Assembly (NCBI GenBank): GCA_965204835.1
Contig: OZ242017.1
Coordinates: 1,091,842 to 1,155,841 of the forward strand
DNA from: Dehalococcoidia bacterium
GTDB lineage: Bacteria; Chloroflexota; Dehalococcoidia; UBA2979
DNA length: 64,000 nt
Reading direction: 5' to 3'
Part shown: positions 40,643-55,567 of the stretch, one piece after another
How the letters are laid out: every line of letters begins with the position of its first letter
Position numbering within the stretch: position 1 is the stretch's first letter
Translations under genes and position numbers: made by a program
Notes under the pieces: generated by a model
What the model saw: the letters and a program-made list of their open reading frames with translations, nothing else
Database searches by the model: none
Told to the model about the DNA's origin: nothing

Positions 40643-41866
40643 CTAGCCGCGCGGCAGCGCGAGTCCTCGCGTCGCGATGATGTTGCGCTGGATCTCGTTC
40701 GAGCCGCCGAAGATCGTGTAGACGACGCTGTGCACGTAGAGCTGGGTGAACCGCGCGTCGAGCGGGGTGCGCTCGTGGGCGCGGTCCCAGATGTTCGAGT
40801 AGAGCCCGAACACCTTCATGCCGGTGTTCGCGGTGCGCTGGTTCAGCTCGGAGCCGAAGATCTTCGAGGTCGACGCCTCGTAGTTCGGGACCATCCCGCT
40901 CGCCTGGATCGAGATGATGCGGAACGAGAAGTTGAACAGCACCTCCGACTCGATCCAGCGGTCGGCGATGAGCGTGCGGGCGCGGTCGCCGCGGTCCTGC
41001 GCCCGCAGCCGGCCCTCGTCGGTGTCGAGGTAGTCGATGAGCGAGCGGAGGCGTCGCCGCGTCTCGACCGCGCCGGCGATGTTGGAGCGCTCGAAGTCGA
41101 GCAGCGTCATGCCGACGTACCAGCCGCGGTTGACCTCGCCGATGACGTTGGTGGCGGGGACGCGGACGTCCTCGAAGAACGTCTCGTTGGTGCCGTGCTC
41201 CCAGCCCATGGTGATGATGGGGCGGACGGAGATCCCGTTGTTCTCCTGGGGCATCACCATGAAGGTGATGCCGCGGTGCTTCGGGGCGTCGGGGTCGGTG
41301 CGGAACATCCCGAAGACCCAGTTGGACTTGTGGGCCGAGGAGGTCCACATCTTCTGGCCGTTGATGATGTACTCGTCGCCGTCGCGGACCGCGCGCGTCT
41401 GCAGCGAGGCGAGGTCCGACCCCGCGCCCGGCTCCGAGAACCCCTGCGCCCAGAGGATCTCGCCGCGCAGCGTCGGGGGTAGCAGCCGCTCCTTCTGCTC
41501 GTCGGTGCCGTGGATGAGCACCGTGGGGCCGAGCAGCGAGAGGCCGCCGCCGCCCACCAGCGGCGCCTCGGCCTCGGCCATCTCCATGTTGAAGATGAAC
41601 TGCTCCATGGTCGTCAGGCCGGCGCCGCCGTACTCCTGTGGCCAGTGCGGGGCGGACCAGCTGCGCGAGTCCAGCGTCGCGGCCCACTCGCGCGCCGCGG
41701 CCTGCGCCTCCTCGCTGCCGTGGACCATGTCCTGCTGCCAGTTGTCCTCGAGGGTGACGGCGCTCCAGCGCCGCTTGTCCTTGTAGTACTGCGGCAGGTT
41801 CTCGTCGATGAAGCTGCGCACGTCCTCGCGGAACGCGGCCTGCTCTGCAGTGTCTTCCCAGTCCAT
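40643..41866 (-). CDS. Acyl-CoA dehydrogenase (tandem paralog A)
   Basis: 407 aa from ATG 41866 (MDWEDTAEQAAFREDVRSF...). ACAD N/M/C domain signatures are present (GFSEPGAGSDLASLQTRAVRDGDEYIINGQKMWTS ... YEASTSKIFGSE). Confidence 0.85.
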   Translation of the reverse strand: MDWEDTAEQAAFREDVRSFIDENLPQYYKDKRRWSAVTLEDNWQQDMVHGSEEAQAAAREWAATLDSRSWSAPHWPQEYGGAGLTTMEQFIFNMEMAEAEAPLVGGGGLSLLGPTVLIHGTDEQKERLLPPTLRGEILWAQGFSEPGAGSDLASLQTRAVRDGDEYIINGQKMWTSSAHKSNWVFGMFRTDPDAPKHRGITFMVMPQENNGISVRPIITMGWEHGTNETFFEDVRVPATNVIGEVNRGWYVGMTLLDFERSNIAGAVETRRRLRSLIDYLDTDEGRLRAQDRGDRARTLIADRWIESEVLFNFSFRIISIQASGMVPNYEASTSKIFGSELNQRTANTGMKVFGLYSNIWDRAHERTPLDARFTQLYVHSVVYTIFGGSNEIQRNIIATRGLALPRG

Positions 41867-41918
41867 GCGCTGCCTCCTCGGCGTGCCGGTCACGTCTCCG
41901 GCGTGATTGCTGCGAGGG

Positions 41919-41928
41919 AGTCTAACAG
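41919..41928 (-). promoter_or_regulatory. Conserved extended -10-like motif cTGtTAGACT upstream of ACAD copy A; equivalents are upstream of copy B (about 43305) and copy C (about 44985)
   Basis: The motif on the gene strand is ACGCTG(T/C/G)TAGA(C/A)TC(C/T)C(T/G)CGCA. It occurs about 50 nt upstream of each of the three ACAD starts and resembles the actinobacterial extended -10 (TGnTAnnnT). Confidence 0.35.
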
Positions 41929-41984
41929 CGTCCCTGCTCACGGGCGTCTGGCTCGCAGGCGCCAGCCCGGCGGGCGACGCGAAC

Positions 41985-42006
41985 GCGCCCCGGTTGCCCG
42001 GGGCGC
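41985..42006. terminator. Hairpin GCGCCCCGG-TTGC-CCGGGGCGC downstream of ACAD copy B (loop inverted relative to the other two copies)
   Basis: Same 9-bp stem as at 40595 and 43661, but the loop reads TTGC instead of GCAA. Confidence 0.5.
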
Positions 42007-42031
42007 GCTGCGTGGTGCCTGCGAGGTGGGA

Positions 42032-43255
42032 CTAGCCGCGCGGCAGGGCCAGCCCTCGCGTCGCGATGATGTTGCGCTGGATCTCGTTGGAGCCGCCGAA
42101 GATCGTGAACACCACGCTGTGCACGTAGAGCTGCGTGAAGCGCGCGTCCAGCGGGGTCAACTCGTGCGCCCGGTCCCAGATGTTGGCGTACAGGCCGAAC
42201 GCCTTCATGCCGGTGTTCGCCGTGCGCTGGTCCAGCTCGGAGCCGAAGATCTTCGAGGTCGACGCCTCGTAGTTCGGGACCATCCCGCTCGACTGCATCG
42301 AGATGATGCGGAACGAGAAGTTGAACAGCACCTCGGACTCGATCCAGCGGTCGGCGATCAGCGCGCGCGTCCGTTGCGCCCGGTCCTGCGACCGCAACTG
42401 CCCGTCGTCCGTGTCGAGGTAGTCGATCAGCGACTGCAGCCGCCGACGAGTCTCGACCGCGCCCGCGATGTTGGAGCGCTCGAAGTCGAGCAGCGTCATC
42501 CCGACGTACCAGCCGCGGTTGACCTCGCCGATGACGTTGTTGGCGGGCACGTGGACGTCCTCGAAGAACGTCTCGTTGGTGCCGTGCTCCCAGCCCATGG
42601 TGGTGATGGGACGGACGGTGATGCCGTTGTTGAGCTGCGGCATGACCATGAACGTGATGCCGCGGTGCTTCGGGGCGTCGGGGTCCGTGCGGAACATCCC
42701 GAACAGCCAGTTGGACTTGTGGGCCGAGGAGGTCCACAGCTTCTGGCCGTTGATGATGTACTCGTCACCGTCGCGCACCGCGCGCGTCTGCAGCGAGGCG
42801 AGGTCTGAGCCGGCGCCCGGCTCCGAGAAGCCCTGCGACCACAGCATCTCGCCGCGCAGCGACGGCTCCAGCAGGCGCTCCTTCTGCTCGTCGGTGCCGT
42901 GGATCAGCACCGTCGGCCCGAGGAGCGAGAGGCCGCTGCCGCCGACCATGGGAGCCTCGGCCTCGGCCATCTCCATGTTGAAGATGAACTGCTCCATGGT
43001 GGTGAGCCCGCCGCCGCCGTACTCGTTCGGCCAGTGCGGCGCGACCCAGTTCCGCGAGGAGAGCACGTCGGCCCACTCCTGCGCGGCGGCCTTGGCCTCG
43101 TCGCTGCCGTGCATCATGTGGTCCTGCCAGTCATCCTCCAGGGTGACTGCGTTCCACTCCCGCTTGTCCTTGTAGTACTGCGGCAGGTTCTCCTCGATGA
43201 ACGAGCGGACGTCCTCGCGGAACGTCGCCTGCTCTGCAGTGTCTTCCCAGTCCAT
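42032..43255 (-). CDS. Acyl-CoA dehydrogenase (tandem paralog B)
   Basis: 407 aa, about 85-90% identical to copies A and C (MDWEDTAEQATFREDVRSFIEENLPQYYKDKREWNAVTLEDDW...). Confidence 0.85.
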   Translation of the reverse strand: MDWEDTAEQATFREDVRSFIEENLPQYYKDKREWNAVTLEDDWQDHMMHGSDEAKAAAQEWADVLSSRNWVAPHWPNEYGGGGLTTMEQFIFNMEMAEAEAPMVGGSGLSLLGPTVLIHGTDEQKERLLEPSLRGEMLWSQGFSEPGAGSDLASLQTRAVRDGDEYIINGQKLWTSSAHKSNWLFGMFRTDPDAPKHRGITFMVMPQLNNGITVRPITTMGWEHGTNETFFEDVHVPANNVIGEVNRGWYVGMTLLDFERSNIAGAVETRRRLQSLIDYLDTDDGQLRSQDRAQRTRALIADRWIESEVLFNFSFRIISMQSSGMVPNYEASTSKIFGSELDQRTANTGMKAFGLYANIWDRAHELTPLDARFTQLYVHSVVFTIFGGSNEIQRNIIATRGLALPRG

Positions 43256-43399
43256 GCGCTGCCTCCTCGTGGACGCGTCGCGTCCGCCGTGCGTATCTGC
43301 GAGGGAGTCTAGCAGCGTCTGTCACGCCACCGGAGCGGATCACGGGCGGGTCGCGAGGTCGCTGGCCATCGGGAGCGACTGCTGAGCTATGATCCGGTC

Positions 43400-43630
43400 A
43401 TGGCGACCACACGACTCGACATGGACGGGGCGCAAGCCCAGCTCCCGGAGCACGTCGCGCGGCTGGAGCCCGGCGATAGCATCATCCTGTGTCGCGAAGG
43501 CCGCCCCGTGGCCGAGATCCGGCCGATCGAGGAGCCCCTGGCCGAGCCTCGCCCGGTCGGGTTGGGCAAGGGTCTCGTCGAGATCCCCGACTCCTTCTTC
43601 GAGCCGCTTCCCCCGTCTGCCTTCTCGTAG
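43400..43630 (+). CDS. Orphan type II antitoxin-like protein (VapB/Phd-like; C-terminal LGxGKGxxEIPDSFFEPLP motif)
   Basis: 76 aa (MATTRLDMDGAQAQLPEHVARLEPGDSIILCREGRPVAEIRPIEE...PVGLGKGLVEIPDSFFEPLP). It resembles antitoxins whose C-terminus carries the (L)LKG...DDFDxPL motif. No cognate toxin gene follows it. Confidence 0.5.
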   Translation: MATTRLDMDGAQAQLPEHVARLEPGDSIILCREGRPVAEIRPIEEPLAEPRPVGLGKGLVEIPDSFFEPLPPSAFS

Positions 43631-43660
43631 CGATAGCGCACGGTCCACGCAGATGCAAAC

Positions 43661-43682
43661 GCGCCCCGGGCAACCGGGGCGC
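43661..43682. terminator. Hairpin GCGCCCCGG-GCAA-CCGGGGCGC downstream of ACAD copy C
   Basis: Third copy of the element, about 25 nt after the copy C stop. Confidence 0.5.
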
Positions 43683-43707
43683 GCTGCTGCGTGCGTGCGA
43701 GGAGGGA

Positions 43708-44931
43708 CTAGCTGCGAGGCAGCGCCAGTCCGCGCGTCGCGATGATGTTGCGCTGGATCTCGTTCGACCCACCGAAGATCGTGAACACCACGCTGTGGAC
43801 GTAGAGCTGCGTGAAGCGCGCGTCCAGCGGCGTGAGCTCGTGCCCGCGGTCCCAGATGTTCGCGTAGAGCCCGAACGCCTTCATGCCGGTGTTTGCCGTG
43901 CGCTGCGAGAGCTCCGAGCTGAAGATCTTCGAGGTCGACGCCTCGTAGTTCGGGACCATCCCGCCCGCCTGCATCGAGATGATGCGGAACGAGAAGTTGA
44001 ACAGCACCTCGGACTCGATCCAGCGGTCGGCGATCAGCCCGCGCGTCCGGCCTGCGCGGTCCTGCGACTTCAGCGAGCCCTCGTCCGTGTGCAGGTAGTC
44101 GATCAGCGACTGCAGCCGCCGACGCGTCTCGACCGCGCCCGCGATGTTGGAGCGCTCGAAGTCGAGCAGGGTCATGCCGACGTACCAGCCGCGGTTGACC
44201 TCGCCGATGACGTTGTTGGCGGGGACGCGCACGTCCTCGAAGAACGTCTCGTTGGTGGCGTGCTCGAAGCCCATCGAGATGATCGGGCGGACCGAGATGC
44301 CGTTGTTGGTCTGCGGCATGACCATGAAGCTGATGCCGCGGTGCTTCGGCGCGTCGGGGTCGGTGCGGAACATGCCGAACAGCCAGTTGGACTTGTGGGC
44401 CGTGGAGGTCCACATTTTCTGGCCGTTGATGATGTACTCGTCGCCGTCGCGGACGGCGCGCGTCTGCAGCGAGGCGAGGTCTGAGCCGGCGCCCGGCTCG
44501 GAGAAGCCCTGCGACCAGAGCATCTCACCGCGCAGCGTCGGCGCCAGCAGGCGCTCCTTCTGCTCGTCGGTGCCGTGGATCAGCACGGTCGGGCCCATGA
44601 GCGAGAGGCCCTGGCCGCCGACCATGGGGGCCTCGGCCTCGGCCATCTCCATGTTGAAGATGAACTGCTCCATGGTGGTGAGGCCGGCGCCGCCGTACTC
44701 CTGCGGCCAGTGCGGGGCGACCCAGTTGCGCGAGGACATGCGGTCGGACCACTCCTGCGCGGCGGCCTTCGCCTGGTCGCTGCCGTGGACCATGTCCATC
44801 TGCCAGTCATCCTCGAGGGTGACGGCGTTCCAGGCCCGCTTGTCCTTGTAGTACTGCGGCAGGTTGTCGTCGATGAAGCTGCGGACGTTCTCGCGGAATG
44901 CCGCCTGCTCTTCGGTGTCTGCCCAATCCAT
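43708..44931 (-). CDS. Acyl-CoA dehydrogenase (tandem paralog C)
   Basis: 407 aa (MDWADTEEQAAFRENVRSFIDDNLPQYYKDKRAWNAVTLEDDW...). Same family as copies A and B. Confidence 0.85.
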   Translation of the reverse strand: MDWADTEEQAAFRENVRSFIDDNLPQYYKDKRAWNAVTLEDDWQMDMVHGSDQAKAAAQEWSDRMSSRNWVAPHWPQEYGGAGLTTMEQFIFNMEMAEAEAPMVGGQGLSLMGPTVLIHGTDEQKERLLAPTLRGEMLWSQGFSEPGAGSDLASLQTRAVRDGDEYIINGQKMWTSTAHKSNWLFGMFRTDPDAPKHRGISFMVMPQTNNGISVRPIISMGFEHATNETFFEDVRVPANNVIGEVNRGWYVGMTLLDFERSNIAGAVETRRRLQSLIDYLHTDEGSLKSQDRAGRTRGLIADRWIESEVLFNFSFRIISMQAGGMVPNYEASTSKIFSSELSQRTANTGMKAFGLYANIWDRGHELTPLDARFTQLYVHSVVFTIFGGSNEIQRNIIATRGLALPRS

Positions 44932-49589: not shown

Positions 49590-49651
49590 GCGCGCGCCTG
49601 CCGCAGCCGGAGGGGGCCGGGTAGGGAAAATCGCCCGCCGACCGTCCTACG

Positions 49652-52093
49652 ATGCCTCACATGGAGCGTAATCCCCGCGGCCGCCCGCGCCACCCCGACG
49701 TCCTGACGCCGGCCGAGTGGCGCGTCCTGGAGGAGCTCCGCGAGGGCGGCACGAACGCCGAGATCGCCTCGCGGCTCGGCATCAGCGGCGACGCGGTCAA
49801 GTACCACATCTCGAACATGCTCGGGAAGCTCGAGCTGCGCGACCGCCGCGCCCTCGCGGAATGGCGCCCGGACACAGGTCGAGGCCGCCTCGGCGCGCTG
49901 GGCGCCTTTCCTGCGGCGCTCGGGTTGGTTGCTCGATCGGTCACCTGGATGGGGACGGGCGCGGCTGTGGCGGCCGGCGTGGCGGTGGTGTCGGTCACGA
50001 CCATGCTGGTGATCGCCGTGGTCGCGACCCAGCGGGGCGGGGAGCCGGCCACGGTGATCGAGGTGCCGGTCGCGGTGACGAGAGCGCCCGATACGCCGGC
50101 CACGCCGATCGTGCTGGCGCCCGCGGCGCCCACCGGGATACCCGCTGGGATGCAGACGCCCGGGCCGACCGCTTCGCCAACCCCGACTCTGCGGCCAACG
50201 GCAACCCCGACTCCGCCGCCAACGGCGACGCCGGCACCGGGGCCCGCATTGGCGCCAGGACAGGAGGTCGTGTTTCTCGGGGAAGTGCCCGAGGAGGATC
50301 GGTCCATGGTTCGCGAAGAACTCACGAGCATCATCTCGTTCTTCGACGACCGTTTCGGCGTCGTGGTACCCGAGTTCACCTTCTATTTCTCCATGGAGCC
50401 GGGCCCGCTCGCCGCGCATTACGAGGAGCTGCATGATCGGGAGGCTCCATTCGCCAGCGGCTGGGCGGTGGGCCTGCTCGACGGGACCACCGAAGCCTAT
50501 GTCACGCACCCGGATCCTCATCCGAGGGCTGCAATCCTGGCGCATGAGTACTACCACCTCTTGCAGCATCACGTGGTGCAATCACATGCCGACGGTCCGC
50601 GCTACGCTCCCGCCTGGCTGATCGAGGGAACGGCCGAATACGCCGCCGACTTGTATGCCCTGCGGAACAGCGAGGGCGAGGCGGAATTCATGTGGCTGTG
50701 GGAAACCCTGGCGCGTACGAATATCCCGATCACGGCCGTCGTCCATAACGAGGCGATGCCCTGGGCGATCCTTCCAGGCGGAGGGCCGATCCGGGGGATA
50801 CTCGATCCCGTGTACTACCAACTGGCAGCCTCGGGTATTGCGTGGCTGGTGGCGAATTCCGGCGACGACCACGCTCACCTGAGTTACTGGCGCTTGCTGG
50901 CGGAGACTGACGATCCCGACGGTGCTTTTGCATCCGCCTTTCGCATCACGGTGGACGACTATGCCGAAGTGTTCGAGGAGTACCGGGCCGCGTCGGTGGA
51001 TGATCTCCCGCAGATCCGCGCTGTGGTCATGGACTCCGCAGGGAGGCCCCTGCCCGGCGTGGGAGTAGGCGTTGGACCCGCGCCTGCCGCCGACCCGCAG
51101 ACCCTTGAAGGGTTTCACCGCAACGCGACGTTCCTGAGCCAGCGTGCCAGCATCACCGAGGGGATCACGGCGAGTGATGGCTCAGTCGCTCTCTCCGTCC
51201 TTCCTGGGAGGGCCTATTACGTATCTCTCGCCTGGACGATCCCGGCCTCATCGGAAGTGGAGGCCGAATGGGTCTTCTTCGGTCTCCCGGTGCACCCCTC
51301 GTCTGGCGATGTGAACCGGTGCGGGCCGCTCACCGCCCTCGTCGTGGATGACCAGGATGTCGAAGACCTGACGATACGGCTAACGCCCGCGGTGCTGGTC
51401 CGAGACCCGGCGCCGGGGGTCCGGGCCCAACTCCTGCGTGCGACGCCCGAGGAGTTCAACCGGTTGATCCTGGATCTGGCTCCACCCTGCGGCGAGGGGC
51501 TCCGCGATGCGGTTTCCCTGTCCGGCGTCGTGCGCGGCCCGGACGCCAGGCCGGCTGCATCCGTCCTTGTCTGCGCGGTGCGCGAGGAGAGTCCCGGGCT
51601 GCAGTCGCCTTGCACCGAGACGACAGCGGACGGCTCATTCGTGCTCATGGTTCAGCCCGGCATGTTCGGGCTCCAACTCCTCCCGCCGGGTTCGCGGTAT
51701 GGCTGGTACGGCGAGGATGGCTTCTTCACCGGAGAGAGCCAGCGTGAGGTCATCGAGCTGGGCAGCGCCGATGTGCGAGGGATCGAGGTGCGGCTACCTG
51801 CGTTCATCACTGGAACGGTGCTGGGGCCCGGTTCCGACCCGACGGTGTGGGGAACCATCATGATCTGCGCGGAACCGACCTCTCCCGAGATCCATCCCGG
51901 CTGCGCCATGCTCGGGCACGACGGGACATTTGCGGTCGCGGCTCCGGAGGGGGCCGTCTGGCTGCGTGTGCTTCTCCGCGGGAGCCAACTGGGTTGGTAC
52001 GGTGCCGATGGTTCCGTCGTGGGCGATGACGAGCGGACTGCAATCACGATAGCGGGCCAGAACGTCGACGGAATCGAAATCCACCTACCCTGA
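49652..52093 (+). CDS. Membrane-anchored LuxR-type HTH regulator fused to an extracytoplasmic HExxH (gluzincin / Peptidase_MA_2-like) domain and three CarboxypepD_reg-like beta-sandwich repeats
   Basis: N-terminal GerE/LuxR HTH (LTPAEWRVLEELREGGTNAEIASRLGISGDAVKYHISNMLGKLELRDRRALAEW, about residues 19-70). Single TM helix (AAVAAGVAVVSVTTMLVIAVVA). Pro/Thr linker. HEYYH at 50543-50557, with WLIEGTAEYAAD 24-27 aa later (E at 50624 or 50633), giving a gluzincin HExxH...E signature. The C-terminal repeats (TADGSFVLMVQPGMFGLQLLPPGSRYGWYGEDGFF...GIEVRLP and GWYGADGSVVG...GIEIHLP) resemble carboxypeptidase regulatory-like domains. Confidence 0.6.
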   Translation: MPHMERNPRGRPRHPDVLTPAEWRVLEELREGGTNAEIASRLGISGDAVKYHISNMLGKLELRDRRALAEWRPDTGRGRLGALGAFPAALGLVARSVTWMGTGAAVAAGVAVVSVTTMLVIAVVATQRGGEPATVIEVPVAVTRAPDTPATPIVLAPAAPTGIPAGMQTPGPTASPTPTLRPTATPTPPPTATPAPGPALAPGQEVVFLGEVPEEDRSMVREELTSIISFFDDRFGVVVPEFTFYFSMEPGPLAAHYEELHDREAPFASGWAVGLLDGTTEAYVTHPDPHPRAAILAHEYYHLLQHHVVQSHADGPRYAPAWLIEGTAEYAADLYALRNSEGEAEFMWLWETLARTNIPITAVVHNEAMPWAILPGGGPIRGILDPVYYQLAASGIAWLVANSGDDHAHLSYWRLLAETDDPDGAFASAFRITVDDYAEVFEEYRAASVDDLPQIRAVVMDSAGRPLPGVGVGVGPAPAADPQTLEGFHRNATFLSQRASITEGITASDGSVALSVLPGRAYYVSLAWTIPASSEVEAEWVFFGLPVHPSSGDVNRCGPLTALVVDDQDVEDLTIRLTPAVLVRDPAPGVRAQLLRATPEEFNRLILDLAPPCGEGLRDAVSLSGVVRGPDARPAASVLVCAVREESPGLQSPCTETTADGSFVLMVQPGMFGLQLLPPGSRYGWYGEDGFFTGESQREVIELGSADVRGIEVRLPAFITGTVLGPGSDPTVWGTIMICAEPTSPEIHPGCAMLGHDGTFAVAAPEGAVWLRVLLRGSQLGWYGADGSVVGDDERTAITIAGQNVDGIEIHLP

Positions 52094-52157
52094 CCCGCGT
52101 CCACGTTGCTCACACGTCCTGCGGGCAGCATCGGTCGCTCGCGCTATCCTCCGCGCC

Positions 52158-53495
52158 ATGACCGCCGAGCCCCACGTCGCTGACGACGACACGCCACCAC
52201 GCCCGCCGCCCCCGAGGCGGCGAGGCGTCTACTGGGGCTGGTGGATCGTCGGCGGGGCGGTCATCGCGCAGTTCGCGGCGATGGGGACCGCGGGCGCCAT
52301 CGCCGGGGTGTTCCTGCGGCCGATGACCGAGGAGCTCGGGTGGAGCGCCGCCGAGTTCACGCTCGGCGGCTCGGCCGCGTTCCTGCTCGGCGGGCTCTCG
52401 GGGTTGGTCGTCGGGCCGCTCGTCGACCGGCACGGGGCGCGTCCGCTGATGCTCGCGGGCGCGTGCATCTACGCGCTCGCGTTCCTCGGCATGTCGCGCG
52501 TCGAGGAGCTGTGGCAGTTCATCGCGCTCTCGATGGCTGCGGGCGGCGCTGGCTCTTCGATGGTCGGCCCGCTCGTCTCGAACGTGACGCTCTCGAAGTG
52601 GTTCGTGGTGCGGCGAGGGTGGGCGATCGCGCTCGGCTCCTCGGGCGTCTCGTTCGCGGGGCTGGTCATGCCGGTGACGATGACACGCGTCGTCGATGCG
52701 ATCGGGTGGCGCGACGCGTACGCGGCGCTCGCCGTGGCGATGTTCGTGGTGATCGTGCCGGTGGCGCTGATCATGCGCCGGCGTCCCGAGGACTACGGGA
52801 TGCTCCCCGACGGCCTCGACCCCGAGGCGGCCCAGGGCGCGGGCACGATGGCGGCGGAGGCGCAGGCGCGCGACGCGGCCAACTCATACACGCGCGCCGA
52901 GGCGGTACGGACGCGCGCGATCTGGCTACTCATCGCCGGGTACGGGCTGAACATGATGGCGCTGTCCGGGGTGCTGGTGCACGCCATCCCGTTCATGACC
53001 GACCACGGCTTCGCGCGCGCCGAGGCGGCGCTGGCCCTGGCCGTGAACGGCGGCGCGAACCTCACCTCGAAGTTCGTGTGGGGGTTCTTCCTGCAACGCG
53101 TCCACGTCCGCTACCTGGGCGCGACGGCGCTCGCGACGTCGGCGACGGGTGTCGTGCTCATGCTGGTCGCGGCGCCGACGGGGGCGCTGCCGCTGATGTT
53201 CGTCGCGTTCTTCCTGTGGGGCTTCGGGTTCGGCGGGACGGTGCCGCTGAGCGAGTTCATCTTCGCGAAGTACTTCGGGCGCGTGTACATCGGCGCGGTG
53301 AGGAGCGTGGGCCTGCCGATCACGATCCTGCTCGGCGCGGCCGGGCCGATCCTCGCCGGCCTGTACTTCGACGTGGCCGGGTCGTACGAGGGCGTCTATG
53401 CGGGGTTCGTGCTCGCGTACCTGGCGGGCGCGACGGCGATCCTCGTCTCGCGCGAGCCGCCGCCGAAGCAGGCCCCGGCCGTGGCTCCAGGCTAG
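52158..53495 (+). CDS. MFS transporter (oxalate/formate antiporter-like OFA family)
   Basis: 12-TM MFS with N-terminal GVYWGWWIVGGAVIAQFAAMGTAGAIAGVFLRPMTEELGWS, typical of OFA/MCT-like MFS. Confidence 0.75.
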   Translation: MTAEPHVADDDTPPRPPPPRRRGVYWGWWIVGGAVIAQFAAMGTAGAIAGVFLRPMTEELGWSAAEFTLGGSAAFLLGGLSGLVVGPLVDRHGARPLMLAGACIYALAFLGMSRVEELWQFIALSMAAGGAGSSMVGPLVSNVTLSKWFVVRRGWAIALGSSGVSFAGLVMPVTMTRVVDAIGWRDAYAALAVAMFVVIVPVALIMRRRPEDYGMLPDGLDPEAAQGAGTMAAEAQARDAANSYTRAEAVRTRAIWLLIAGYGLNMMALSGVLVHAIPFMTDHGFARAEAALALAVNGGANLTSKFVWGFFLQRVHVRYLGATALATSATGVVLMLVAAPTGALPLMFVAFFLWGFGFGGTVPLSEFIFAKYFGRVYIGAVRSVGLPITILLGAAGPILAGLYFDVAGSYEGVYAGFVLAYLAGATAILVSREPPPKQAPAVAPG

Positions 53496-53513
53496 CCGGC
53501 CAGTTCCCCCCGC

Positions 53514-54686
53514 TCACCAGGGGGTCGACTCGGTGTCCTTCACCGCGTCGGGCAGGCGGTAGCTGATCCCCGCGTCGTCGTATACCGATCGCTGCATCAT
53601 CCCCGCGAAGTTATTGAAGTCGTGTGATGGTGCGCCGGGCACGATCCGCGAGCGCAGGATCTGGAACCGCCGTTGCATCCGCACCAGCGCGAGCGCCCCA
53701 AACGTGGACTGCTTCGGGAAGTCGAGCCGATCGGCCAGGTCGTTGCCGATGAGGGCGCGCGAGGTCCGCATGAGAAGCCGGAGGAGCTTCTGCGCCTTCC
53801 CCGGATCGGTGACGCCCAGGAGTTCGGGGACGGTGTTGATGTAGCCGTGCGCCACGGCGATGCCCATCGGGCCGGGTGGGCTCTCACAGGCGTGGGCAAC
53901 GGCCCGGATGCGGTGCGCATCCTCCTCGGTCTCCCACAACAGCGATTCGGGCACACCGAGCAGCCACGTGACGTAGCGCCAGGTGTGCATGAACCCGGCG
54001 CTCTCTTCGTCGGTGAGGCGGACGCCCAGCATCCGGGCGGATTCGAGGTTGAAGGCGGAGAATCCCGTGGACGCCAGCGCCATGTGCGCCATGTGCAGGG
54101 GCACACCCTCGGCCTCCACGTCCCATTCGTCTGAATCGCCGAGCAGGCGCCGTAGCTGGGCGTGGATGAGCCGGATCCGCACCGTGATCTTCCACCCGTC
54201 GCCGTCGCGATCGAGGCCGCCGGGCAGTGTCACCTCCACCAGGTGGCGGGTGTTTTGCTTCACGCGCCGAAGGTTCCCCGCGGTTCTCCCCGTGATATAG
54301 AAGGCCTTCGCCAGTTCCTCCGTGAGTCCGGTGATGAGCGAGTGGAGCACGAGCCCGACGAAGAACAGGTCCGACTGCCGGAAGAAGGCGCGCGAGCCCG
54401 GGAGCGCCTTCGCCGGGGCGAACTCGAACGGCGGAGGGGTCTCGAGCGCGTCGAAGAACTCGCGCAGCGCGAGCGGGGCCCCGGTCAGGCCGCGCTCGTC
54501 GCGATCCATCGCGGCGGCTACGAAGCGCTGTGCGCTTTCCGGATCGAAGGCGTCGAGGGCGGCCACCGCTGCGTCGGCCAGTGGGTCGCCGACCATTGTG
54601 TGCTCGATGTATGTATCGGCCATCGACGAATCGATCGCGTGTGCGCGATCGTAGCTACGAACATAGTTCGACGGAATCGATTGCAT
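53514..54686 (-). CDS. DUF2236 / MpaB-type (rubber-oxygenase-like catalytic domain) oxygenase family protein
   Basis: 390 aa. The conserved pattern (FFRQSDLFFVGLVLHSLITG...RLIHAQLRRLL...HMAHMALASTGF) matches ER-bound oxygenase mpaB/DUF2236. Confidence 0.55.
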   Translation of the reverse strand: MQSIPSNYVRSYDRAHAIDSSMADTYIEHTMVGDPLADAAVAALDAFDPESAQRFVAAAMDRDERGLTGAPLALREFFDALETPPPFEFAPAKALPGSRAFFRQSDLFFVGLVLHSLITGLTEELAKAFYITGRTAGNLRRVKQNTRHLVEVTLPGGLDRDGDGWKITVRIRLIHAQLRRLLGDSDEWDVEAEGVPLHMAHMALASTGFSAFNLESARMLGVRLTDEESAGFMHTWRYVTWLLGVPESLLWETEEDAHRIRAVAHACESPPGPMGIAVAHGYINTVPELLGVTDPGKAQKLLRLLMRTSRALIGNDLADRLDFPKQSTFGALALVRMQRRFQILRSRIVPGAPSHDFNNFAGMMQRSVYDDAGISYRLPDAVKDTESTPW

Positions 54687-54769
54687 CCGGGACAGGATAG
54701 CCCGGCGACTGTGATTAAGCGACTATTCGGTAGGCTCTGTGCCGCTGAACGCTCCGGCTAGATGCGTTA

Positions 54770-55567
54770 CTACATTTGGGATAGCACCTCGGCGAAGAAG
54801 GCGTCGACGCGGGCGTTGAAGAACTCTGGGAGCTCCCAGTACAGCGAGTGGCCCGCCTCCGGCACGCGCTCGATGCGCGAGCCCGCGACGTGCTGCTGCG
54901 CCGCCGCCGTCAGCTCGATCGGGATCGTGGCGTCCTCCTCGCCCGCGAGGAACAGCACGGGCACGTCGAGGTTGGCGAGGTTCGCGATGGGGATCGCGCC
55001 GTCCTCAACGGTGTAGCCCTCGGGGAGGTCGATCGGCGGGTTGAGCGCGCGCACCTGCTGGTACAGGAAGAGCCGCTCGGGGTGCTCCCGCTTGAAGCGG
55101 TCGCCCACCATGTTGGTCTGCTCGGCGGGCACGACGGCCGGGTCCAGGCGCGCGAGGCCCGACCAGTGCTCGCGCGCCCGCGCCATGAGGCCCTCGTCGC
55201 CGACGCCGAGGAAGGTGTTGGCCATGACGAGCGCCCACACGCGCTCCGGGTGCGTGCCCGCGAAGGTCATGCCCGTGAACCCGCCCATCGACTGCGCGAT
55301 GATCGCCGTCGACTCGACGCCGAGGTGGTCCAGGAGCTCCTCGAGGTCACGTGGGTACGCGCGGATGGTCTCGCCCGAGTGGTCGAGGCTCTGGCCGAAG
55401 CCGCGATGGTCGATGGTGATGCAGCGGTAGCGCTGCGAGAAGTGCGGCACCTGCTGCCACCAGCTCAGGTGGTTCCCGCCCGCGCCGTGCGCGAACACGA
55501 TCGCGCGGTCGCCGTCGCCGCGGTCCTCGTAGTAGAGCTCGCCACCGGTGACATCGAGCATGGGCAT
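54770..55567 (-). CDS. Alpha/beta hydrolase
   Basis: MPMLDVTGGELYYEDRGDGDRAIVFAHGAGGNHLSWWQQ...AQSMGG nucleophile elbow...AGHSLYWE. ATG at 55567. Confidence 0.8.
   Translation of the reverse strand: MPMLDVTGGELYYEDRGDGDRAIVFAHGAGGNHLSWWQQVPHFSQRYRCITIDHRGFGQSLDHSGETIRAYPRDLEELLDHLGVESTAIIAQSMGGFTGMTFAGTHPERVWALVMANTFLGVGDEGLMARAREHWSGLARLDPAVVPAEQTNMVGDRFKREHPERLFLYQQVRALNPPIDLPEGYTVEDGAIPIANLANLDVPVLFLAGEEDATIPIELTAAAQQHVAGSRIERVPEAGHSLYWELPEFFNARVDAFFAEVLSQM

Follow-up and report, generated by a model that had tools for sequence, protein, structure and literature searches.

A LuxR-type helix-turn-helix joined to a predicted single-pass gluzincin-like ectodomain: one paralogue of a Dehalococcoidia family with a shared promoter element

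What does a bacterial protein do that carries the DNA-binding head of a transcription factor at one end and a metallopeptidase-like module at the other? The question is raised by a gene on the forward strand of a 64-kb stretch of Dehalococcoidia bacterium DNA (assembly GCA_965204835.1, contig OZ242017.1, positions 1,091,842 to 1,155,841; hereafter the window). A first-pass annotation, made from the letters and their open reading frames (ORFs), had described it as a cytoplasmic LuxR helix-turn-helix (HTH), one transmembrane (TM) helix, an outside gluzincin-like domain and three beta-sandwiches. This architecture had been read correctly, and all the sequence features listed for it were found in 49652..52093. 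The gene is one paralogue of a Dehalococcoidia/Tepidiformaceae family in which a constant HTH-TM module is followed by interchangeable ectodomains. The features of this family, namely modular ectodomains, a shared promoter that appears leaderless and covariation between HTH and promoter element, are of greater interest than the single gene. The reading that we prefer, at about even confidence, is that of a bitopic membrane-integrated one-component regulator resembling ToxR and CadC, with a LuxR/GerE HTH that binds an element in its own promoter.

A constant HTH-TM module with interchangeable ectodomains

The N-terminal part of the gene is organized as follows, with residues numbered along the listed ORF (residue 1 at 49652, M4 at 49661).

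49652..52093, + strand: listed ORF, uninterrupted, 813 amino acids (aa)
49661..52093, + strand: coding sequence from the probable true start (M4 of the listed ORF), stop codon included, 810 aa; homologues begin MERNPRGRP; GC content at third codon positions (GC3) 0.79 vs 0.52 at second positions (GC2)
49673..49696, + strand: basic N-terminal arm PRGRPRHP, residues 8-15; GRP-[RPS]-[HY]-P in every family N-terminus listed
49697..49858, + strand: GerE/LuxR-type HTH, residues 16-69 (Pfam PF00196)
49949..50029, + strand: predicted TM helix, residues ~100-126, Gly/Ala-rich; single strong segment in a Kyte-Doolittle scan, peak 2.55
50042..50263, + strand: Pro/Thr/Ala-rich low-complexity linker, residues 131-204, from the sequence

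The assignment of the head to the GerE/LuxR class, already made in the first-pass annotation, is borne out by a PF00196 match over residues 16-69 (E=1.1e-13, 51 bits vs a gathering score of 23.5). The same stretch matches the C-terminal DNA-binding regions of NarP, NarL and CsgD in NCBIfam and the PDB sequences of ComA, NarL and VraR. Its recognition helix, approximately residues 46-60, reads GDAVKYHISNMLGKL and retains the typical LuxR pattern TVKxH, here AVKYH. Neither an OmpR-type winged helix (Trans_reg_C) nor an anti-sigma Pfam domain was matched in the protein. A search with the module alone returned soluble proteins of ~216 aa from Gammaproteobacteria metagenome-assembled genomes (MAGs; P0334, P0346, P0375 and about 50 others), in which the same arm, with the GRP-[RPS]-[HY]-P motif, and HTH (PRGRPRHPDVLTPAEWRV...DAVKFHV) are followed by a VOC/glyoxalase domain. 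These HTH-VOC proteins are 55-65% identical to the family over arm and HTH; they differ in having no TM helix, and their presumed sensor is the cytoplasmic, small-molecule-binding VOC domain. Such a classical DNA-binding plus ligand-binding layout supports a DNA-binding role for the module, and an HTH dimer would be expected to bind DNA sequence-specifically. The HTH-VOC set itself looks like an uncharacterised one-component family with an N-terminal LuxR domain.

The hydropathy scan yielded one strong segment after the HTH, in keeping with the single TM helix proposed earlier, and a weaker hydrophobic stretch ahead of it (residues 80-95). A strong segment occupies the same position in 111/111 family proteins tested, and the 90 aa that follow it average 60% P/T/S/A across the family. 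Approximately 25 residues lie between the HTH (module residues 1-75) and the TM helix. The predicted topology is bitopic, N-in and C-out: in other proteins the peptidase-like domain usually sits behind signal-peptide-like hydrophobic N-termini, the linker is rich in Pro and Thr, and the ectodomain Pfam types found in the family are typically extracellular.

More than 100 proteins recovered by homology search share the first ~100 residues (arm, HTH, short linker and TM helix) at 70-80% identity. Their ectodomains include SH3b domains, LRR, RCC1 propellers, NHL/SMP-30 propellers, FN3, reprolysin-like peptidases and the gluzincin plus beta-sandwich combination, and many have no Pfam match. In GTDB genomes, 192 confirmed stretches encode the HTH-TM module. 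The best 80 of the 192 come from MAGs labelled Dehalococcoidia, Tepidiformaceae, Chloroflexi or Chloroflexota, together with one Anaerolineaceae and one 2.3-kb Gemmatimonadetes contig, and 4-6 copies per genome were counted within these 80 alone. Several of the MAGs are presumably derived from marine sponges, judging by isolate names. The earlier picture of a single fused gene was thus right about the layout and wrong about its isolation: the layout recurs in dozens of paralogues of a large lineage-specific family with many ectodomain types. Members are named generically in databases (e.g., "helix-turn-helix transcriptional regulator"). Some family genes stand in tandem, two or three together, and every copy has a promoter element to itself (L020 at 3004, 5921 and 7397; L008, L045, L056, L063 and L080). 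Some matches consist of HTH, TM helix and a short tail (P0267, 143 aa; P0279; other short matches), and may be truncated genes or minimal tethered HTH proteins.

The full architecture, gluzincin-like domain included, is found uninterrupted in four orthologues from other assemblies (P0002-P0005, 39-51% identity), which are syntenic between S9 peptidase and MFS genes. This bears on a trivial explanation, raised in part by the first-pass annotation, that two genes have been fused by a frameshift or assembly error, or that the frame is a spurious long ORF in GC-rich DNA. The closest relative lends it some colour: in L002 8001-10470 (ena:ERZ25068475 contig_1), 96.5% identical in nucleotides to window 49661-52093, the gene is broken twice, by the loss of 1 nt from a TTTT run at codon ~425 and by a stop codon in frame at codon ~732, and its Pro/Thr linker shows a 24-nt in-frame indel. 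These lesions are either strain decay to a pseudogene or long-read homopolymer and base errors, and the window copy is intact. The four uninterrupted, syntenic orthologues, the dozens of paralogues with the HTH-TM-ectodomain layout and a codon-position GC pattern typical of coding sequence all tell against an artefact, which we regard as extremely improbable.

No gene family (sigma factor, anti-sigma factor, site-2 protease or kinase) recurs beside the family genes in 83 loci, which argues for a self-contained one-component device. A functional tie to the adjoining S9 peptidase and MFS genes was considered and rejected: the whole neighbourhood is syntenic among close relatives only, and a more distant homologue (P0007) is located in an unrelated gene context. 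A tblastn search with the N-terminal module over the window revealed no paralogue beyond the gene at 49661..52093.

A shared promoter element and its covariation with the HTH

Two promoter features precede the gene.

49618..49629, + strand: upstream element CGGGTAGGGAAA, about -43 to -32 relative to the ATG at 49661, overlapping the -35 position
49648..49653, + strand: -10-like hexamer TACGAT, 7 nt upstream of the ATG at 49661

Alignment of the 100 nt upstream of 84 family starts showed the same arrangement in nearly all of them: TCGGGTRGGGWAA(M)(Y)(Y), about 14-15 unconserved nt, TAnnnT, 7 nt and ATG. The core form of the element is CGGGTRGGGWAA, about 18 nt before TAnnnT, and it is conserved before about 80 family genes. 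At nearly all family loci a distance of 6-8 nt separates TAnnnT from the start codon, and every hexamer variant noted has A2 and T6, as a -10 box does. This fixed distance implies leaderless mRNAs, with transcription predicted to start at or next to the ATG. The first ATG of the listed ORF (49652) falls within the -10-like hexamer; the hexamer at its fixed distance and the starts of the homologues, which correspond to M4, place the real start at 49661. The element at the -35 position bears no likeness to TTGACA, no canonical -35 was seen, and neither a canonical sigma-70 promoter nor a terminator was detected close to the gene.

The element is nearly confined to family promoters in the DNA scanned (the window plus loci with flanks of 3-8 kb each, 3 kb for most). 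CGGGTAGGGAAA is the sole match in the 64-kb window, and 67 of the 75 loose matches in 630 kb stand directly before a recognisable family start, with three more resembling family promoters at locus edges. A subset carries an inverted second half-site, e.g. GGGTGGGG-AAAC-CCCCACCC; inverted half-sites with at least 6 of 8 matches were observed 22 times vs 7.6 expected. CGGGTAGGGAAA is thus a candidate operator for the HTH of the same protein or, alternatively, the recognition site of a dedicated factor. The arm PRGRPRHP, which by its motif resembles an AT-hook core, could lie in the minor groove at the A/T tract with which the element ends. A reading of the element as RNA structure was set aside: the spacer shows no conservation, and the position weight matrix does not keep the GTAGG...CCTAC complementarity of the window copy.

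The element changes together with the protein. Among VKTH proteins, 7/8 have TGAGG and the eighth has GGAGG at the aligned position; VRYH proteins have CGGA[TC] in 6/6 cases; VKFH proteins have TAGTGA or GGGATAAT; and A48 goes with TAGGG and T48 with TGGGG in 34 cases each. Even neighbours differ: in the L020 tandem, a VRYH gene with CGGACGGGG adjoins a VKTH gene with CGGGTGAGG. Of all pairings of a protein column with an element column, those of residues 47 and 48 had the highest mutual information (0.9 and 0.6 bits), and Y51 with element position 8 was among the strongest pairs after normalisation. Residues 47, 48 and 51 form the start of the recognition helix, and we take residue 51 to be the equivalent of the base-contacting V189 of the NarL-DNA complex. 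The pattern is suggestive of each protein reading its own promoter.

HTH domains may also serve as protein-interaction modules, as illustrated by RodZ, whose HTH binds MreB, and by anti-sigma-like mimics of sigma region 4. Under an explanation of this kind, the head would bind a protein and the upstream element would belong to the promoter of a dedicated sigma factor or regulator for the whole family. The position of the element exactly at -35, a possible likeness of its GGGAAAC core to ECF-type (extracytoplasmic function) -35 boxes, the near identity of the HTH among paralogues, as expected for a shared partner, and weak Sigma70_r4 matches on the HTH (E=2e-3) are consistent with it. Nevertheless, GerE scores far above Sigma70_r4, the DNA-contacting LuxR pattern and the AT-hook-like arm are conserved, the same module heads the soluble HTH-VOC proteins, the covariation is concentrated on residues 47, 48 and 51, and no sigma gene recurs nearby. 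We consider a protein-binding role distinctly improbable.

The element also occurs outside the family. An exact copy, TCGGGTAGGGAAACCTCC followed by TATAAG (L088 7869-7886), stands upstream of a small unrelated ORF on a contig of lower GC present in two assemblies (L087 and L088; ERZ724522 and ERZ724505). Judging by their translations, ORFs of this contig may encode a DNA ligase and a clamp-loader protein. The contig may be a phage or plasmid, and might represent a mobile element borrowing the promoter of the host family.

The ectodomain and possible modes of action

Beyond the linker, the protein comprises a peptidase-like domain and a stalk.

50264..51013, + strand: divergent gluzincin metallopeptidase-like domain of clan MA(E), residues 205-454
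50543..50557, + strand: HEYYH, residues 298-302; putative zinc ligands H298 and H302, putative catalytic E299
50624..50626, + strand: E325 in WLIEGTAEY, putative third zinc ligand; nearly invariant, and the alignment with M1 WLSEGFATYAE spans this stretch
51014..51379, + strand: beta-sandwich domain 1, residues 455-576, from the secondary structure of the AlphaFold2 (AF2) model
51386..51478, + strand: short helical insert, residues 579-609, from an alignment gap and helices 125-155 in the model
51512..51793, + strand: beta-sandwich domain 2, residues 621-714, CarboxypepD_reg-like, GWYGEDG...GIEVRLP, from PF13620, AF2 and Foldseek
51800..52084, + strand: beta-sandwich domain 3, residues 717-811, GWYGADG...GIEIHLP, from AF2 and likeness to domain 2

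The gluzincin arrangement that had been noticed in HEYYH and WLIEGTAEY holds in motif spacing, conservation and predicted fold. E325 lies 23 residues beyond H302, in agreement with the HExxH plus Glu ~20-25 residues downstream of MA(E) gluzincins, and HEYxHxxQ...PxWLxEGxAxY is nearly invariant in alignments of 23 and 27 sequences. The structure predicted for residues 205-468 with 22 homologues (pLDDT 79, pTM 0.81) has a thermolysin-like catalytic fold, and its Foldseek list consists of M1, M61 and LTA4H. A profile of 27 domain relatives matches a Deinococcus radiodurans M1 peptidase over the WLxEGxAxYAE helix (E=1.8e-5); Peptidase_MA_2 (PF13485) matches 16/27 of these relatives at E up to 1 (best 1.5e-5) and Peptidase_M9 matches 10/27. 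This protein itself reaches the gathering score of no Pfam peptidase model: PF13485 has no match, and the best one is Peptidase_M9 (E=0.11 with the whole protein, 0.019 with the domain alone). Among the Pfam families named in the first-pass annotation, GerE was therefore matched strongly, Peptidase_MA_2 not at all and CarboxypepD_reg only below threshold. Fold, profile and motif evidence together identify residues 205-454 as a divergent MA(E) gluzincin, which differs from Peptidase_MA_2, M30 (hyicolysin/lugdulysin), M9 collagenase and M1 members in being subthreshold for Pfam models and fused to a transcription factor; the M1 exopeptidase motif GxMEN, moreover, is not in the sequence. Zinc binding and catalysis are predicted from the conserved site.

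The domain belongs to a small family: of 1.84 billion representatives, 386 matched at E up to 0.001. It is made up mostly of multidomain proteins with signal-peptide-like N-termini, only a few of them with an HTH. HExxH is kept in about 85-90% of the HTH-linked members and lost in a few, among them P0006 (NEYFR) and P0234 (HLYF). The first-pass annotation had offered a self-cleaving switch or a pseudo-protease peptide sensor as possible roles. Secreted proteins of 1000-1400 aa (P0122, P0128, P0129 and P0131) contain three to six stretches that match the domain, and may hold tandem copies or fragments of it.

Three beta-sandwiches, as proposed earlier, appear in the AF2 model of residues 455-813 (pLDDT 84), for which Foldseek retrieved pilin, CnaB-type and carboxypeptidase D domains, types found in the stalks of Gram-positive surface proteins. 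Domains 2 and 3 are 34% identical (E=2e-19). PF13620 matches residues 622-673 below its cut-off (E=9e-4, 20 bits vs 32.3) and is matched by 20/23 relatives, the best at 8e-38. The helical insert is missing in the closer orthologues P0002-P0005; P0006 and P0010, which are more distant, align with part of it in short segments.

An intact, conserved HExxH...E site in a membrane-bound regulator invites the idea of a regulated-proteolysis switch, in which the HTH would be inactive until the ectodomain is cleaved, by its own gluzincin in cis or trans or by another protease, and an intramembrane protease would then free a ~95-aa HTH fragment as a soluble transcription factor. Anti-sigma cascades of regulated intramembrane proteolysis and RsgI autoproteolysis are precedents for such a release. 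The Gly/Ala-rich TM helix, whose composition is able to destabilise a helix, the short HTH-TM linker, which makes tethered DNA binding sterically harder, and the existence of an HTH-TM-only protein such as P0267 also fit. However, most paralogues have non-protease ectodomains (SH3b, LRR, RCC1), so that self-cleavage cannot be the general mechanism of the family. Furthermore, no site-2 or other protease recurs beside the family genes, P0006 and P0234 have lost HExxH and kept the architecture, and CadC binds DNA uncleaved while tethered (PMC5936718). Altogether, a proteolytic switch seems improbable.

Alternatively, the protein could be a surface-anchored exoenzyme on the cytoplasmic membrane of a monoderm, S-layered cell. 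Its HTH would do no more than keep its copy number steady by autoregulation, which co-translational insertion from the leaderless mRNA would assist, and would transmit no external signal. The near restriction of the element to family promoters in the loci and window examined, the mostly secreted, multidomain character of the ectodomain family and a stalk like those of pilins and adhesins agree with this, as does the monoderm envelope of Tepidiforma, with its S-layer and 40-nm periplasm-like space (PMC10284905). Nevertheless, it gives no account of why non-enzymatic, binding-type ectodomains (LRR, RCC1, SH3b) share the module, and flanks of 3-8 kb per locus leave room for other regulon members. 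We hold this explanation to be doubtful.

The one-component reading treats the protease-like module as one among many sensor or effector modules of the family. The regulator would remain membrane-held and dimerise through the Gly/Ala-rich TM helix and the HTH. An extracellular peptide or protein, the signal proposed for the gluzincin member, would be bound or turned over at the ectodomain, and the oligomeric state would be altered through the TM helix. The HTH dimer would then bind the element at -35 in the leaderless promoter of its own gene, and possibly a few other promoters, resulting in signal-dependent autoregulation.

Several points weigh against this proposal. The linker between HTH and TM helix has ~25 residues vs about 50 in CadC (PMC5936718), so that the DNA would need to approach the membrane closely. 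About a quarter of the members have a second, weaker hydrophobic stretch before the TM helix and, if it also crossed the membrane, the topology would invert. The near-identical HTH among paralogues argues against a private regulon per sensor. DNA binding and operator assignment rest on covariation scores that are inflated by shared descent, and L68 and V25, which are non-contact residues, also carry mutual information with the element. The element occupies the -35 position, where a dedicated sigma factor would bind too. An unbiased metagenome search with the element gave 5 exact hits, not enough to delimit a regulon; a family gene followed 1 of them, and 2 came from copies of a single phage-like contig. 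Finally, the gene is dispensable or decaying in the closest relative, unless its lesions are sequencing errors.

Known systems offer partial parallels. The RsgI anti-sigma-I factors of Clostridium thermocellum are single-pass paralogues with adjacent cognate sigma genes, each reporting a different extracellular polymer. As in the present family, the cytoplasmic module at their N-terminus is conserved, and the binding or enzyme-like domains outside the cell are interchangeable. RsgI, however, binds a sigma factor instead of DNA; the present protein has an HTH as its cytoplasmic module and no sigma gene next to it.

ToxR-like receptors (ToxR, CadC, TcpP and VtrA) are bitopic one-component regulators with a cytoplasmic winged-helix DNA-binding domain of the OmpR type (PMC5936718, PMC6320335). 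The present protein resembles them in its N-terminal DNA-binding domain, predicted to be cytoplasmic, its single TM helix, its predicted extracytoplasmic sensor and the lack of a phosphorelay or required partner gene; like them, the tethered protein would be expected to bind DNA at the membrane (PMC5936718, PMC6320335). It differs in its tetrahelical LuxR/GerE HTH in place of a winged helix (PMC5936718), a much shorter cytoplasmic linker, an ectodomain of ~680 aa that is multidomain and enzyme-like, several paralogues per genome with swapped ectodomains, and a monoderm Chloroflexota host. Membrane-integrated LuxR-type regulators are also known from Coriobacteriia, where DadR, CadR and HcdR combine an N-terminal domain of 10-12 TM helices with a C-terminal LuxR HTH and lie beside the metabolic enzymes that they regulate (Dong et al., 2022, PMC9734109). 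Lineage-specific expansion, conserved DNA-binding domains, divergent sensors and hints of autoregulation are common to both groups (PMC9734109). In contrast, the HTH is N-terminal here, the TM helix is single, the sensor is globular and predicted to be extracytoplasmic, and no neighbouring target gene is conserved. The first-pass statement that such a family had not been described therefore holds in that no N-terminal-LuxR single-pass family was found in the literature searched, but both membrane LuxRs (PMC9734109) and the bitopic ToxR family (PMC5936718) were known. The host is a monoderm whose envelope has peptidoglycan, an S-layer and a wide periplasm-like space (PMC10284905). LuxR regulators go unmentioned in the Tepidiforma genome paper.

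No transmembrane signalling device is simpler than a membrane-integrated one-component regulator, and those known so far are mainly of the ToxR type of Proteobacteria and, recently, the polytopic LuxRs of Coriobacteriia. The family would add a third design, with a LuxR head, a single membrane pass and plug-in ectodomains, in a little-studied and for the most part uncultured branch of Chloroflexota to which sponge symbionts belong. It offers a natural experiment in modular receptor evolution, in which at least 8 input types have been joined to a single output module and a single promoter type, and the promoter-HTH covariation leads to concrete operator predictions. If the tethered HTH does act at the -35 of leaderless genes, this would bear on how membrane-bound factors find DNA and on the coupling of transcription to membrane insertion. 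The family modules are potentially useful as sensor scaffolds.

A bolder extension can be formulated, which we rate as a long shot. A dozen or more single-pass receptors per cell, all with an AT-hook-armed LuxR head, would constitute an unrecognised signalling system of Tepidiformaceae-type Dehalococcoidia; docked at the -35 position of the receptors' own leaderless promoters, the head would stand in for sigma region 4 while tethered to the membrane, paralogues would be kept apart by small changes in the recognition helix, and proteolysis by the gluzincin, of an external substrate or of the receptor itself, would lead to promoter activation.

Base composition, sequence mosaic and neighbouring genes

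The first-pass annotation had taken a fall in GC after the HTH-TM part as a sign that the ectodomain had been acquired and fused. The drop itself is real: GC is 0.72-0.77 in the first 200 codons and 0.63-0.68 thereafter, and GC3 is 0.865 and 0.77, respectively. The overall GC3 is the lowest among the gene-like ORFs of the window, whose ordinary genes have 0.92-0.98. Nevertheless, it was rejected as evidence of a recent horizontal acquisition of the ectodomain. The same drop is found in the orthologues at 39-51% identity, and among 65 family members with any ectodomain the mean GC3 is 0.87 in the HTH, 0.79 in the ectodomain and 0.92 in the best neighbour. Moreover, much of the step is at codon position 2 (0.64 vs 0.49), reflecting amino-acid composition. 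The GC step marks a module boundary that is family-wide and old. The low GC3 of the family persists across species and might be due to weak expression, fast turnover or frequent exchange.

A different kind of mosaic emerged from the comparison with the closest relative, L002. The two copies differ by a synonymous divergence of 0.18 over the HTH-TM part but of 0.02-0.03 over the ectodomain, and nucleotide identity is 88-93% over 49661-50200 vs 98-99% over 50220-52300. Such a pattern suggests that the 5' module may have undergone recombination or gene conversion, perhaps with a paralogue as donor.

Elsewhere in the window, no tRNA or Rfam matches were found. Three tandem paralogous ORFs of 407-432 aa on the - strand (40643-44931), identified as acyl-CoA dehydrogenase genes by synteny with L001 and L002, share 85-93% DNA identity with one another, indicating a probable recent tandem amplification. 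An MPAB_Lcp_cat-like gene (53485-54786; ORF 53514..54686, - strand, 390 aa), with a GC3 of 0.86 that is also below that of its neighbours, is present in the window and in L001 and missing from the otherwise collinear L002, L003 and L004, and thus represents an indel between close relatives.

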